A stretch of DNA of 19,599 bases, taken from positions 1 to 19,599 of IMG/VR virus record IMGVR_UViG_2617270964_000006; one strand, given 5' to 3'. The notes beneath the pieces were generated by a model, which was not told the DNA's origin, did no database searches, and saw nothing but the letters and a program-made list of their open reading frames with translations. This document shows, piece after piece, positions 1-6,621 of this stretch. Within the stretch, counting starts at the first letter, position 1, and every line of letters starts with the position of its first letter. The DNA comes from a virus (taxonomy: Duplodnaviria; Heunggongvirae; Uroviricota; Caudoviricetes). A program made the position numbers and the translations under genes.

Positions 1-1667
1 CTGTAATTCCCGAACTCGCCCAACTTTGTGTTTCCGGCTTTCTTGTGATGCATCAGATTCAGTTTGCCGCCTGTGGTCTGGGTGAAGAACGACATCAGGA
101 ACGGGTTACCAGTCCCGGTCATCACCACGACGTCAGGTAACGCTACATCGGTATACAGATAAATTCCCAGACCGAACTGGTTGTTGGTCAGTGCGCCTGA
201 CAGTCGAAACTTACAGCTCAGTCTGCCACCCCGTGTCAGCAGGGAGACTGCGTCATCCACCGGATGCATCAGGGACCAGGTTTTATTGCTCTGCTTGGTA
301 ACCTTAAACACACCATCTTCCAGCGCAACACTGCCGCCGGTGATGGTCCAGCCCTGCGCAGCAGCCTCTCCGGCTGTCGGCAGCAGGGAGACTGTACGAA
401 CGGATGTGTCACCATCAGACGGCCCCGATGGAGTGTCGCCGCCGGGCGAGGGTTTGATTTCCGGTGCCTTACCACTGATGAAGGCTGAGGTGCGCCCGGC
501 TGCGTTCAGAATAGCGGTTGCCATACGATCCGGAATAATGCTCCTGCGCGCCCATGAACTGAAATGTGTCGGGCGGTTTGATGATACCCAATTGCCATTA
601 CTACGGGATTGCGCGCCGTAATAACCTGCATCAGCAATATCCGGGTCTTCTGCCGGTAAGTTGGTGGGCGTGTTGTTGCCGTTACCGTCGGTCATGAACG
701 GCACAAAGAAAACGTTGTCGCTCTCCCTGTTTTTGTACGCGCCATAGACGGAGTCATACTGTGTGCCGTATGTGTTTTTCCAGTAATACGTCGTGTCGCC
801 ACAAATCCACGGTACAACTGCAGCACTGCCGCCATGGCACTGCGCGTTAAATCCGGAAAGGTCAGTACGGAACTGCTTCAGCATGGCCGTGAACAGGTCC
901 GGTTGCTGTGCGTAGGTGGCAGCGCTCATGTCAAATTCGCCCTGCATCCAGCACACCGCCAGCAACACATTTTTCGGGTTCTTCTGTAATGCCGCTTTGG
1001 TGCGTGCGATCAGGTCCTGATATAACGGTTTACCCACACCCCAGCGTGCCGAATCCTGGCTGGCCCCCGTGTCCGCACTGAATGTCCCCTCCGCGCCCTG
1101 GGTGAATGCCGAACCACCACGACAGCATGGTACCAGCAGGATCCCCGCGTTATTCGGGATATACGGAAGCAGTTTTTTGGCAATATGTAAGCCCTGGCCG
1201 ACACAGCCGTACTGCCCTTTGCTCAGGTCTGCCTTCGGATGATTCAGTGCGCTCATATCCTGAACATCATGCAGGCAGTGGTCTGCCGGAATGATGTCGT
1301 TAAATGCGCATGCTTTACCACCGGGAGTCACTGTGTTGCGACGGGCCAGTTGCTTAATGCGTGGGTGGGGCGCATCGTAAGAATCCGGCAGCGGCATTCC
1401 CTCACCATATGACATGGCATTGGATTGACCAGCAAGTACCACCACGTAATACCACTCCGGCACGCTGCCGTGCTGGGGGGAATCAGGTGAGATGTCTGTA
1501 GTGCCATCGGCCACCATTGCCTGCATTAGATACCACGGGGTGCCGGGTTCGTAGGCAACCCGCGTCTCCCCCTGAAGATGCCACCCTTTCGCAAGATGTT
1601 CATTCACCTTTTGAGTCAGTTCAGCCTGTGTCATGGCTGTAATCAGTGCAAAGTTCTTACTGGTCAT
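1..1667 (-). CDS. NanS-p-like sialate O-acetylesterase (DUF1737-like N-terminus + SGNH/SASA esterase domain); 3' end runs off the window
   Basis: Minus-strand frame open from ATG at 1667..1665 to position ~1 by manual translation (about 555 codons; not in the ORF track because it is truncated). N-terminus MTSKNFALITAMTQAELTQKVNEHLAKGWHLQGE; esterase block VVVLAGQSNAMSYGEG resembling the GQSNMxG serine motif. SD GGGAG 8 nt upstream; ATG overlaps the o-spanin stop (ATGA). Confidence 0.65.
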   Translation of the reverse strand, partial: MTSKNFALITAMTQAELTQKVNEHLAKGWHLQGETRVAYEPGTPWYLMQAMVADGTTDISPDSPQHGSVPEWYYVVVLAGQSNAMSYGEGMPLPDSYDAPHPRIKQLARRNTVTPGGKACAFNDIIPADHCLHDVQDMSALNHPKADLSKGQYGCVGQGLHIAKKLLPYIPNNAGILLVPCCRGGSAFTQGAEGTFSADTGASQDSARWGVGKPLYQDLIARTKAALQKNPKNVLLAVCWMQGEFDMSAATYAQQPDLFTAMLKQFRTDLSGFNAQCHGGSAAVVPWICGDTTYYWKNTYGTQYDSVYGAYKNRESDNVFFVPFMTDGNGNNTPTNLPAEDPDIADAGYYGAQSRSNGNWVSSNRPTHFSSWARRSIIPDRMATAILNAAGRTSAFISGKAPEIKPSPGGDTPSGPSDGDTSVRTVSLLPTAGEAAAQGWTITGGSVALEDGVFKVTKQSNKTWSLMHPVDDAVSLLTRGGRLSCKFRLSGALTNNQFGLGIYLYTDVALPDVVVMTGTGNPFLMSFFTQTTGGKLNLMHHKKAGNTKLGEFGNY

Positions 1668-2912: not shown

Positions 2913-3113
2913 CTACTCCCCCCACAACTGAATCATTTCTCGTTTCTTCTTCTCCGGCTCCGGCATCTCCACTTCCTGCCCGGTGTCCAGAAATACCTGC
3001 TGACAGAGTCCGGGGTTGGCATCCAGCACCTTTTCGGTGACGCCCTGTGTCGTGCCGTAGTACCGGAAACAGAGCGAATCCACGGTGTCACCTTCCAGTG
3101 CCTTCACTTTCAT
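2913..3113 (-). CDS. X: P2 gpX-like tail protein
   Basis: ATG at 3113 gives MKVKALEGDTVDSLCFRYYGTTQGVTEKVLDANPGL, recalled as close to the P2 gpX N-terminus. Track start at 3119 is GTG. Confidence 0.8.
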   Translation of the reverse strand: MKVKALEGDTVDSLCFRYYGTTQGVTEKVLDANPGLCQQVFLDTGQEVEMPEPEKKKREMIQLWGE

Positions 3114-3607
3114 CAGCACAGCTCCGCAAACATTCGCGGTCGTCCCAGAATGTCAGAGATGGCCCAGCTCACATCGCGCCACAAATCCGATGTCTGTATA
3201 TCCAGTGCGTCCGCCCGGCGGTCGCCCTTGTCCGTTGTGTCCGCATCGCGGTAACGCTCCAGAATCAGGGCGCGTGTGGCGGTATAAACAGCATTGCGCC
3301 AGTGCCAGAGATTGACGCTTTCTCCGTTAATTACAGGGGCCGGAACATCGGCCAGCGTCTGATAGCCAGCCGCCTGTTGTTCCTGCTGCCATGCTTCCAG
3401 CTCGCGGGTAACGTGTGCTATGGCCCCGGTGGCGGTATGCAGCAGGCGGGAGGTGGTCACGCGGCCCGGCAGTCGTACCGCCAGACGCAGCTCGCGCAGC
3501 ACAATATCCGGCCAGAATGCACCCGCTGAAATACGGGTATCGCCATCATCGGTGTCGGTGATGTCGTCCTCTGCGGGGCCGGGGTTAGTTCTGGCAACCA
3601 TACTCAT
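3113..3607 (-). CDS. L: P2 gpL-like head completion/stabilisation protein
   Basis: About 164 aa in the conserved position between M and X; first ATG at 3607 preceded by AGGAG. Family assigned from synteny and size. Confidence 0.7.
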   Translation of the reverse strand: MSMVARTNPGPAEDDITDTDDGDTRISAGAFWPDIVLRELRLAVRLPGRVTTSRLLHTATGAIAHVTRELEAWQQEQQAAGYQTLADVPAPVINGESVNLWHWRNAVYTATRALILERYRDADTTDKGDRRADALDIQTSDLWRDVSWAISDILGRPRMFAELC

Positions 3608-3621
3608 GGGGTTCACTCCTG

Positions 3622-3692
3622 AAAAAATCGGGCGGTGGGTGCGCGGTGTAAACGGTCACGGAGTCAAACCGGAACACCGCGCACGCCGCCCG
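3622..3692 (-). terminator. long imperfect hairpin plus U-tract between M and L (putative intra-operon terminator/attenuator)
   Basis: Arms 3629-3649 (CGGGCGGTGGGTGCGCGGTGT) and 3674-3692 (ACACCGCGCACGCCGCCCG), about 18 bp paired; on the minus strand followed by ATTTTTT (3628-3622), then the L RBS. Confidence 0.45.
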
Positions 3693-3708
3693 CTGACGGG
3701 GTCAGTCG

Positions 3709-4509
3709 TTAACCGCGCTTTGCCTTCTGCGTCGCGGTGGTTTTTCGTGTTGCAGGCTTCTGCGTTGTCTTTTTACTTTTGCTGCTTTCGTCCTGCGTCT
3801 GCTGTGCGCTGGCGTCTTCTGGTGCGGCTGCGGAATCGGCTTTTTTCAGGGCGCGGGAAAGGGTTGCAATCTCGCGTTTCACACCTGCGTTCGGGTTCAG
3901 GTGCATCGCTTCGCGCAGCAGCTTCAGTGATGAGGCCATGTTGTCTGCATCGGTCAGGCCACGACGGGCAAAGGCACACGCCTTGCATAATTTGGCGCGC
4001 ACTTCGTCCGGCATGTCCTGGTTGGCGACAATTTCCCAAAGTGTGTCCAGTGGTTCGATAAAGGCGGATAAATCCGCGTCGGCATCCGTCCCGGCCTGCG
4101 TCAGTACCGGGTTGCAGATTTCTTCGGTCAGTACCGTGGCAGCAGTACGGCCAAAGTTATCCGGCATGATGAGGTTGTGACGGACCACATATGCACCAAT
4201 ACGCAGCGCCAGCGGAAGATCGCCGCAGTCAATCGCCCACACCATCAGCGTGGCAATTACTTCGTCCTGTTGCCCGCCGTCAGTCTCCAGCGTTCCCTCA
4301 ATCCAGCCGGAAAAGTCCGGCAACAACTCTTTTTTGATGGCGGCTTTCGCGCTTCTGGCCTGTACGCCCTTTAGCCTGGCCTGTGCCAGACGCAGACGAT
4401 ACAGCACCTCTTCATGCGCGGTACGCGCGGCGTGGTCCACACCTTCATTCGCCCGGCCTGCGCGCTGTGCCATCACGTTCTGCCAGTGTTGTTGTGCAGG
4501 AGTAATCAT
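3709..4509 (-). CDS. M: P2 gpM-like terminase small (endonuclease) subunit
   Basis: 266 aa, ATG with GGAGAG RBS, basic K/T-rich C-terminal tail; position between N and L. Confidence 0.8.
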   Translation of the reverse strand: MITPAQQHWQNVMAQRAGRANEGVDHAARTAHEEVLYRLRLAQARLKGVQARSAKAAIKKELLPDFSGWIEGTLETDGGQQDEVIATLMVWAIDCGDLPLALRIGAYVVRHNLIMPDNFGRTAATVLTEEICNPVLTQAGTDADADLSAFIEPLDTLWEIVANQDMPDEVRAKLCKACAFARRGLTDADNMASSLKLLREAMHLNPNAGVKREIATLSRALKKADSAAAPEDASAQQTQDESSKSKKTTQKPATRKTTATQKAKRG

Positions 4510-4526: not shown

Positions 4527-4545
4527 GGCGGGCATGATGCCCGCC
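4527..4545 (-). other. perfect 9-bp palindrome/hairpin in the N-M intergenic spacer
   Basis: GGCGGGCAT-G-ATGCCCGCC; no U-tract on the transcribed strand, so more likely an RNA processing/stability element or pause site than a terminator. Confidence 0.35.
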
Positions 4546-6467: not shown

Positions 6468-6621
6468 AGTTTTTGCCCCTCTGACTGGTTCTTCAGTCAT
6501 GATGGCAAAGCGTAACAGGCTGATACAAAGGGCTTTTGTTGTAAGAAAACGGCCAGAACAGGGGGTTAAGGAGAACGGTTTCGCGCGCGGGTAATCTTCC
6601 TGTAATTACTCAGGGGGAGCA
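6468..6621. promoter_or_regulatory. divergent late promoter region for the O operon and the P-Q operon
   Basis: 154-bp spacer between divergent O and P starts, with imperfect dyad ACAAAG-GGC-TTTTGT (6525-6539) about 90 bp upstream of the P ATG. Confidence 0.4.

Follow-up and report, generated by a model that had tools for sequence, protein, structure and literature searches.

A conserved two-hairpin RNA element predicted between the M and L genes of P2-family phages, and its terminator-like tail in the branch of a P88-like prophage

The long hairpin that separates genes M and L in the late operon of a P88-like Escherichia coli prophage is, as judged by comparative alignment, the local copy of an approximately 83-nt two-hairpin cis-acting RNA element of most P2-family phages, and the pattern of substitutions among these phages has shown the hairpin to be maintained by compensatory changes. 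In the window (the whole 19,599-nt stretch of viral DNA that was analysed) the element is followed by a short run of U residues, and the most economical reading of this arrangement is that in the window's branch an old hairpin now supplies the stem for a leaky terminator inside the operon.

Similarity over the late genes identifies the window as a P88-like (P2-family) E. coli prophage, its M-L region being 99% identical to that of phages vB_EcoM-705R2 and 569R5 and approximately 96% identical to that of P88 (genus Xuanwuvirus). Open reading frames and Pfam matches place the late genes on the minus strand in the order N, M, L, tail protein X, holin and M15 endolysin (Table 1). Gene O starts at 6500, and the M-L element thus lies more than 2.8 kb into the operon. 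The assigned start of L is supported by gpL N-termini that remain alignable across the P2 family. No tRNA or tmRNA gene was found in the window by ARAGORN.

Table 1. Features of the M-L region and its flanking genes, in window coordinates, listed in the direction of transcription
Feature	Position	Strand	Basis or remark
N	5607-4555	-	Pfam Phage_cap_P2
M, small terminase subunit	3709..4509	-	ORF list; Pfam Phage_term_smal, E = 1.4e-36
M stop codon TAA	3711-3709	-	3 nt (CGA) before HP1 start
Whole M-L intercistronic RNA element (HP1 + HP2)	3630..3712	-	covariance model R1 match
HP1, 5-bp hairpin CUGAC/GUCAG with CCC loop	3693..3705	-	predicted fold
HP2 lower stem, 5' strand GGGCGG	3686..3691	-	pairs with 3635-3630
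HP2 internal loop, 5' side, unpaired C	3685	-	alignment A3
HP2 upper stem, 5' strand GUGCGCGGUGU	3674..3684	-	predicted fold; covariation
HP2 variable tip, 24 nt, with 5-bp inner helix	3650..3673	-	fold; sequence not conserved
HP2 upper stem, 3' strand ACACCGCGCAC	3639..3649	-	pairs with 3684-3674
HP2 internal loop, 3' side, unpaired CCA	3636..3638	-	alignment
HP2 lower stem, 3' strand CCGCCC	3630..3635	-	predicted fold; pairing in alignment
U6 run	3622..3627	-	after G3629 and A3628; followed by C3621
L Shine-Dalgarno AGGAG	3616..3620	-	8 nt upstream of ATG; from sequence
L start ATG	3607-3605	-	
L, head completion protein / head-tail adaptor Ad1	3113..3607	-	Pfam Phage_GPL, E = 2.7e-47

In its predicted fold HP2 spans 62 nt (3691-3630) and consists of a 6-bp lower stem, a 1x3 internal loop (C opposite CCA, hereafter C / CCA) and an 11-bp upper stem. 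This amounts to 17 stem pairs, or 18 if C3692 is taken to pair with G3629, and the '18-bp' stem of the initial annotation matches the count with this optional pair included. The U6 run follows 2 nt from the modelled stem, or 1 nt if the same C3692-G3629 pair forms, and only 22 nt lie between the end of the hairpin and the ATG of L. Folding of the 116-nt M-L RNA yields -53.7 kcal/mol, compared with -36.0 +/- 3.4 kcal/mol for 200 dinucleotide shuffles (z = -5.1), none of which was as stable as the native RNA. The hairpin and U-tract had been annotated between M and L with the correct place, strand and size, and the described succession of a strong stem and a U-run, on the transcribed strand and directly before the L ribosome-binding site, is indeed present in the sequence.

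Phages of the P2 family were sampled by gpL protein similarity, a procedure blind to the intergenic DNA. In 15 annotated loci, among them P2, 186, SEN5, SEN8, Klebsiella ST15-OXA48phi14.1, Cartapus, Yersinia MLG42 and YenM_201.16, as well as Burkholderia AP3, KL3 and ST79, Ralstonia RSA1, Halomonas vB_HboP_4908 and Mannheimia PHL101, the M-L gap measures 92-115 nt (99 nt in P2, 92 nt in 186), and the other genes of the operon abut or overlap. Phages infecting nine further genera (Salmonella, Klebsiella, Yersinia, Citrobacter, Burkholderia, Ralstonia, Pseudomonas, Halomonas and Mannheimia) keep both the gap and the fold. Zymomonas pZM41, in which M and L overlap, has no element. The fold common to these gaps is a short hairpin with a C-rich loop, HP1, followed by the long hairpin HP2, the latter composed of a G-rich lower stem (usually GGCGG/CCGCC), an unpaired C on the 5' side, an unpaired CCA on the 3' side and an upper stem that is phage-specific. 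HP1 is predicted in all 71 unique homologues, its loop mostly C-rich and its stem diverse (GUCG/CGAC, GCGC/GCGC, GCUC/GAGC, GCGU/ACGC, GCAC/GUGC, CGAC/GUCG, CUGAC/GUCAG and others).

Evidence that HP2 is maintained as a paired structure comes from alignment A2, a set of 32 sequences in which 13 pairs were specified, six in the lower and seven in the upper stem. Standard pairs occupy 99.0% of its cells, compared with 73% in shuffles, and sliding the 3' partner by 1-3 columns leaves only 38-54% pairing. Two-sided changes occur at 11 of the 13 pairs (6.3 in shuffles) and the covariation score reaches 0.65 (0.13 in shuffles), values attained by none of 500 shuffles. All seven modelled upper-stem pairs carry compensatory changes, the first of them appearing as A-U, G-C, U-A and C-G. 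The lower stem is paired in 100% of cells, and its closing pair occurs as G-C, A-U, C-G and U-A. The few departures from the usual lower stem covary as well, as in GCCGG/CCGGC of phiCTX, GGGGG/CCCCC of the Halomonas type and GGGG/CCCC of the Mannheimia phages. A similar result was obtained from the pattern used to search viral contigs, which left two positions on each side unconstrained: in true elements these are always complementary, in the combinations AC/GT, GT/AC, TC/GA, CC/GG, GC/GC and AG/CT, plus one U.G.

The unpaired positions behave quite differently from the helices that enclose them. In alignment A3 the 5' C is found in 71 of 71 unique sequences (one locus, L146, has AC), and CCA has a single exception among the 71, UCA in Klebsiella phage Kp4872-3. 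Both C and CCA are unchanged in the phages with altered lower stems (phiCTX, Halomonas-type and Mannheimia).

Folding energy was initially considered as a means of deciding which strand folds, and was dropped, since the antisense strand proved slightly more stable on average (-34.8 compared with -32.7 kcal/mol for the sense strand) and the test is therefore uninformative. From inspection of the window sequence, this advantage is tentatively ascribed to the UGG/G loop of the complementary strand, which can form one more U.G pair. The energy comparison was replaced by counting G.U against A.C juxtapositions in the upper stem, where 26 distinct G.U contexts, five A.C and five others were observed. 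Because an A.C on one strand would be a G.U on the opposite strand, this count favours the mRNA-sense strand as the one under selection to pair; the call rests on the count, and the energies lend it no support. As a separate observation, the placement of the element, a few nt past the M stop codon and leading into the ribosome-binding site of L, agrees with the mRNA strand.

The element is also specific to its place. Covariance model R1 finds one match in the window (54.3 bits, E = 8e-10), with the next best scoring 9.8 bits, and exactly one match in each of 93 sources, always just upstream of L. In a viral test set of about 1.2 Mb, fetched with a deliberately loose pattern, all matches of at least 41 bits fall among 36 sense-orientation sites between M and L homologues, and the other 86 pattern matches score below 21 bits. 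A bacterial set of about 0.9 Mb, likewise assembled from a loose pattern, contained 120 matches, mostly from high-GC actinobacteria; the model accepts one of them, in Pseudomonas capeferrum WCS358, and this one lies between M and L homologues. In sets collected by gpL alone, the element occurs just upstream of L in eight of eight Mannheimia-type loci and in 31 of 31 Halomonas-type loci having enough upstream sequence. Of 5426 complete E. coli genomes, 1077 contain the window's own 97 nt, at a median of one copy per genome, and inspection of two of these loci placed each between the M and L genes of a P2-like prophage. REP/BIME-type repeats differ in this respect, being present as many scattered chromosomal copies, whereas the M-L element occurs once in the window and at a median of one per E. 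coli genome. Searches of Rfam 15 gave only chance microRNA and snoRNA matches far below gathering scores for the window, and no match at E <= 1 for 18 homologous loci.

Covariation proves an intramolecular hairpin and not the type of nucleic acid that forms it, and DNA also tolerates G.T pairs. P2 replicates by the rolling-circle mode, and the hairpin could in principle serve this process as single-stranded DNA, for example in priming of the displaced strand, rather than as RNA. This reading is highly improbable. The element begins 3-8 nt beyond the M stop, ends about 20 nt short of the L start and is followed by a conserved box that leads into the Shine-Dalgarno site, a tight placement that points to mRNA, and model R1 detects no other copy or partner site in the window.

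Loci beyond the reach of the model retain the general plan. Divergent loci were fetched with gpL of Vibrio 919TP; they give no match to R1, and a long hairpin is still found in the gap. One clade is marked by a poly-C segment: its M stop TAA is followed by CCGACUA, a run of 5-9 C, a long hairpin of the form GCGGGGA.../...UCCCCGC (with variants that include GCAGGG/CCUGC), and then CCCUAUUUGAG. In a Vibrio group the order is GGCUCCUAAGCC, a hairpin of 22 predicted pairs, nine of which carry compensatory changes, and then CACCUAUUUAGAG. The three groups share a C-rich segment downstream of the M stop codon, a long and stable hairpin, and a CCYAUUY box leading into the Shine-Dalgarno site; the C / CCA loop is a mark of the largest group only.

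The U-run has a far narrower distribution. Among 73 unique element-plus-tail variants, seven have at least five consecutive U within 12 nt of the stem and five have at least six. The tail of P2 contains U4, and a U-run is absent from 186, AP3, KL3, RSA1, ST79, phiCTX and the AT-rich Mannheimia PHL101. In the window, U6 occupies the position held in the family by the box ACCYAUUC, just before the Shine-Dalgarno site. Relatives of the window extend the run across considerable divergence. L081, whose gpL is 96% identical to that of the window, has U7 after the stem; L260, another E. coli prophage (gpL 75%), has U8 directly after a stem whose upper part has been rebuilt by compensatory changes; and L088 (gpL 53%) has U7. 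At about 48% gpL identity L002, L003 and L004 carry the ordinary box (GACCUACC, CCUAUUC and GACUUAUAC, respectively), and in L114 (gpL 28%) U7 makes an apparently separate appearance. Retention of the run over such divergence while flanking bases differ suggests that it is under selection in the window's branch, and its absence from about 90% of variants rules out intrinsic termination as the conserved function of the element. The initial interpretation of the hairpin as a terminator is hence plausible for the window's own branch only, in which U7, U8 and U7 are kept while the stems covary, the outcome to be expected if a leaky intrinsic terminator were under selection; as an account of the element at large it does not hold, the hairpin being a family-wide element with conserved features of sequence and not a terminator peculiar to one lineage.

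Comparison with known terminators leads to a similarly mixed picture. The window has a GC-rich stem-loop on the transcribed strand, its lower stem made of six G-C pairs, and a U-run right after the stem, a trait of the branch and not of the family. With 6-7 G-C pairs at the stem base and U6 within 1-2 nt of it, the site resembles leaky intrinsic terminators and attenuators found inside operons, and differs from them in being conserved in sequence across a family, in the middle of an operon, with some nine tenths of its homologues devoid of the run. It is also atypical of terminators in general, which have compact hairpins with loops of about 3-8 nt, being an irregular 62-nt hairpin with a 24-nt tip and a 1-2 nt spacer, located mid-operon with essential genes downstream. 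A consensus terminator scan of the window does not list the M-L site, an omission attributed, on our reading of the scan rule, to its 3-8 nt loop limit. Existing annotation of the region varies: in Mannheimia phage PHL101 the corresponding gap is annotated with a 'terminator' and a promoter (GenBank), and the record of P2 has a putative attenuator further down the same operon and no annotation between M and L.

A different attenuation mechanism would invoke Rho, for which the untranslated gap of about 100 nt would expose C-rich single-stranded segments (the HP1 loop, the bulges, the 3' tail and, where present, the poly-C run), exerting polarity on L and later genes, with the branch U-run as an intrinsic replacement. 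Unpaired bases of the element are indeed C/A-rich and G-poor (C makes up 47% and G 13% of them in the 5' part; within HP2 the figures are 36% and 10%), a run of 5-9 C comes directly after the M stop codon in one clade, and the apparently separate U-runs of distant lineages would fit a selected attenuation site. Rho needs tens of nucleotides of unstructured RNA, whereas very stable helices take up most of the gap, so that the long, C-rich, G-poor and unstructured stretch of a rut site is not found here; bulged bases within helices are unlikely ligands, and the covarying long stem is left without explanation. Rho entry is therefore an improbable account of the element, notwithstanding the documented Rho-dependent polarity of P2 morphogenetic operons, which is relieved by P4 Psu (PMC11718236).

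Taken as a whole, the account that best fits these observations, and to which we would give about an even chance of being right, is that of a conserved two-hairpin M-L RNA element with a post-transcriptional ancestral role, to which a leaky terminator has been added in the window's branch. The element occupies the untranslated M-L gap of the late O-operon mRNA. Within the branch of the window, a run of 6-8 U would have replaced the pyrimidine box that follows the hairpin, turning the hairpin most likely into a leaky intrinsic terminator and 3'-end-forming hairpin in this prophage. Some polymerases would stop around 3622-3627 and produce an O-N-M message capped by a very stable hairpin, and thereby resistant to 3' exonucleases, while the remaining polymerases would continue into L, X and the lysis and tail-completion genes, the net effect being an excess of head-gene over downstream message. 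Such a terminator would have to be leaky, since L and later genes are needed and the 22 nt before L leave no room for a promoter. That the ancestral role in the family would be post-transcriptional follows from the same scarcity of U-runs among its variants.

The protective part of this scheme has precedents in the REP sequences of malEFG and in the puf and pap stem-loops. Like these, the M-L hairpin is very stable, lies at a gene boundary and could block 3' exonucleases in favour of upstream genes; unlike them, it is single-copy and phage-specific, with invariant unpaired bases that a passive barrier does not need. Neither a passive barrier nor a terminator accounts for HP1, for the constancy of the C / CCA loop or for a lower stem fixed as GGCGG/CCGCC, and the core must therefore serve some other purpose. 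It is most likely a structure that is read by a trans-acting factor, either marking a processing or stability boundary, or setting L translation, or both. In terms of function, it probably takes part in mRNA processing or stability, or lets a bound factor control L translation. In our order of preference, a factor-recognised boundary comes first among candidate roles, followed by an operator for L, an RNase E or RNase III site, Rho entry, a put-like RNA, and a single-stranded DNA signal.

Translational control could conceivably operate by internal pairing. The window fold suggests that the 5' and 3' flanks might pair, hiding the L ribosome-binding site and coupling L translation to M, but in 65 variants the flanks pair less well than shuffled controls (mean z = +0.76, with z < -2 in only one), and this idea was abandoned. 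The 3' flank thus tends to avoid the 5' flank, so that the ribosome-binding site would stand open and be controlled from outside. This is one argument for an operator at which a trans-acting phage or host protein, contacting the C / CCA loop and the lower stem some 20-30 nt ahead of the L start, would set L translation, for instance in feedback by free gpL or terminase. Nearly invariant unpaired nucleotides flanked by freely covarying pairs are the usual signature of protein contact, the distance from the element to the L Shine-Dalgarno and ATG is fixed and short, and the internal loops differ in the divergent clades, as expected of RNA-protein co-evolution. A conserved bulged nucleotide in a covarying hairpin near a ribosome-binding site likewise recalls the operators of MS2/PP7 coat protein, T4 regA and gene 32, and P22 scaffold. 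The M-L hairpin differs from these in having neither the Shine-Dalgarno site nor the start codon inside it, a candidate binder, the basic C-terminal tail of gpM, which was also considered as a cis-binding partner and rejected, is not conserved, and an operator does not explain the branch-specific U-run. On balance we regard this as a minor possibility.

Slightly more doubtful still is an endonuclease signal, in which RNase E would cut the A/U-rich box 3' of HP2, or RNase III the internal loop, yielding a stable O-N-M message and an L-S message of different stability with no termination involved. Like the M-L hairpin, the RNase III sites of phage T7 are irregular hairpins with an asymmetric internal loop that lie between cistrons of a polycistronic message; they are conserved among relatives and comprise about two helical turns of double-stranded RNA. 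The M-L hairpin has a 1x3 loop, 17-18 stem pairs plus the 5-bp tip helix, and very high G-C. A single-stranded pyrimidine or A-U box, ACCYAUUC, follows the hairpin in all three clades, the Vibrio type included. Both RNases are presumably common to all host genera concerned, and if so this would fit the deep conservation of sequence. Where the M-L hairpin departs from the T7 sites is in its lower stem of only 6-7 bp and in helices that are almost pure G-C, a composition likely to be unfavourable for E. coli RNase III; in addition, the model does not require HP1.

The possibility that the transcript binds the elongating RNA polymerase, rendering it resistant to pauses and terminators down a long operon as do the put RNAs of HK022, finds some encouragement in the overall shape. 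Put RNAs are about 70 nt long, with two bulged stems, and lie 0-270 nt downstream of promoters (PMC9378689). The M-L element, with its two stem-loops, conserved bulges and length of about 80 nt, fits this cis-acting form loosely, its conserved unpaired bases would suit a conserved host target, and the P2 record has its putative attenuator further along the operon. A position more than 2.8 kb into the operon is, however, far from any such distance to a promoter, HP1 has only 4-5 bp, and the U-run that follows the element in the window's lineage is the opposite of what an antiterminator needs. The element thus falls outside the put definition, and this role is as improbable as that of Rho entry.

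Three further ideas were set aside. A pseudoknot between the HP1 loop and unpaired HP2 bases would require a complement of 4 nt, found in none of 71 variants. Attenuator-style pairing of the 3' half of HP1 with the 5' strand of the HP2 lower stem fits GGCGG, and is lost, by eye, where this strand is GGGGG (Halomonas, Mannheimia). Finally, a likeness of GGCGGC... to the RfaH ops element, which we take to be GGCGGTAGCGTG, extends over the first five bases only, the key T being C here.

All features by which the M-L element is defined, namely HP1 with its C-rich loop and HP2 with its G-rich lower stem, C / CCA loop and covarying upper stem, are present in the window. No description of the M-L hairpin was found in the literature searched, although an early mention of a stem-loop in the 1991 P2 sequence paper is possible, and intergenic structures go unmentioned in a 2026 survey of 5945 P2-like genomes. 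A covariation-supported M-L family with defined invariant features thus appears to be undescribed; in kind, as an intercistronic regulatory hairpin with a terminator tail in one branch, it is a variation on what is already known. A bolder and distinctly tentative proposal is that the two-hairpin C / CCA element represents an undescribed class of phage cis-regulatory RNA with a conserved trans partner (a ribonuclease of the host, RNA polymerase, or one of the phage's core late proteins), which would partition the late head/lysis operon and to which several lineages would have added an intrinsic terminator.

The late operons of the P2 family are commonly presented as simple units that are driven by an activator and lack internal control. 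A deeply conserved RNA structure at one constant gene junction suggests a level of control, either post-transcriptional or by attenuation, that has gone unrecognised and would separate head and packaging genes from those for head completion, lysis and tail completion, with consequences for the balance of virion parts and the timing of lysis. P2-family prophages are common, the element being present in about a fifth of complete E. coli genomes, and it may, on general grounds, have some bearing on the tuning of late expression by P4-type satellites and on engineered P2/P4 particles. It also offers a compact experimental target, with one bulge and one U-run, and a candidate new RNA family for databases.

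A second structure had been noted at the N-M junction (4527-4545), and this palindrome is a real 8-bp GC hairpin, GGCGGGCAUCAUGCCCGCC, with z = -3.1 and no U-run. The suggestion that it acts jointly with the M-L hairpin as RNA punctuation of the late transcript finds no support, as the N-M hairpin is confined to close relatives of P88; the N-M gap itself spans 45 nt in L261 but only 2 nt in L260 and 3 nt in P2.

Immediately 5′ of the Shine-Dalgarno site of L, a conserved single-stranded box, (C/G)ACCYAUUC, occurs among loci L001–L258 and is common to the three clades, including the Vibrio-type group despite its different hairpin (CACCUAUUUAGAG, CCCUAUUUGAG). The corresponding position in the window is taken by the U6 run instead. 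An RNase E site and a translation enhancer are candidate roles that this box could fill.

The length of the U-run differs among close relatives, from U6 in the window to U7 in L081 and U8 in L260. Some E. coli matches to the window element extend over 98 nt vs 97, which, judged by match length alone, is consistent with one extra base, and the U homopolymer may be prone to such length shifts. The intergenic element itself is missing from Zymomonas mobilis pZM41 (L016), whose M and L genes share 4 nt, so at least one replicon of the P2-like type can do without it.

Coordinates of features in and around the N-M and M-L gaps
Feature	Replicon	Position	Strand	Description
N-M hairpin	window	4527-4545	-	8-bp GC hairpin, GGCGGGC-AUC-AUGCCCGCC, z = -3.1
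gpM C-terminus	window	3709-3800		Lys/Arg-rich tail
U-run	window	3622-3627		U6
U-run	L260	1581-1588		U8
Box equivalent	window	3621-3629		
M/L overlap	L016 (pZM41)	1135-1138		
Holin gene	L261	2299-2622		annotated pseudogene

In a clade of P2-like viral contigs (L171–L227), a homopolymer of 5–9 C replaces HP1, the small hairpin of the element, some 90–100 nt 5′ of L, and directly follows TAA-CCGACUA. Because its length differs among near-identical contigs, this run may be hypervariable; poly-C is an ideal ligand for Rho. In some Halomonas-type loci (L235–L240, L245, L249, L254, L258) the gap is made longer by an extra small hairpin, CGCGC-CCGACCCC-GCGCG, which lies between the long hairpin HP2 and L, is followed by an A-run, and looks like a second HP1.

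The hairpin in the N-M gap is restricted to close P88 relatives, and no U-run is present at this hairpin in the window. At 45 nt in both the window and L261, the gap is far longer than in L260 (2 nt) or P2 (3 nt).

Upstream of the element, the window, P2, 186 and SEN5 each encode a gpM with a long C-terminal tail rich in Lys and Arg, a tail absent from the homologues of Burkholderia, Ralstonia, Halomonas and Mannheimia phages; on sequence comparison, its presence is not correlated with the RNA element. By eye, no recognisable Shine-Dalgarno site is found in the ~20 nt 5′ of the L ATG in Burkholderia AP3 (L005), Ralstonia RSA1 (L010) and Burkholderia KL3 (L018), where the start is preceded by sequences such as ...GAACCCGACC-AUG and ...CAAGACC-AUG. 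The annotated L starts of these three phages line up with the family N-terminus, and their L initiation may rely on a non-Shine-Dalgarno feature. In E. coli O157:H7 PV15-279 (L261), the annotation treats the holin gene 3′ of this RNA element as a pseudogene interrupted by an internal stop; the prophage copy may thus be lysis-defective.
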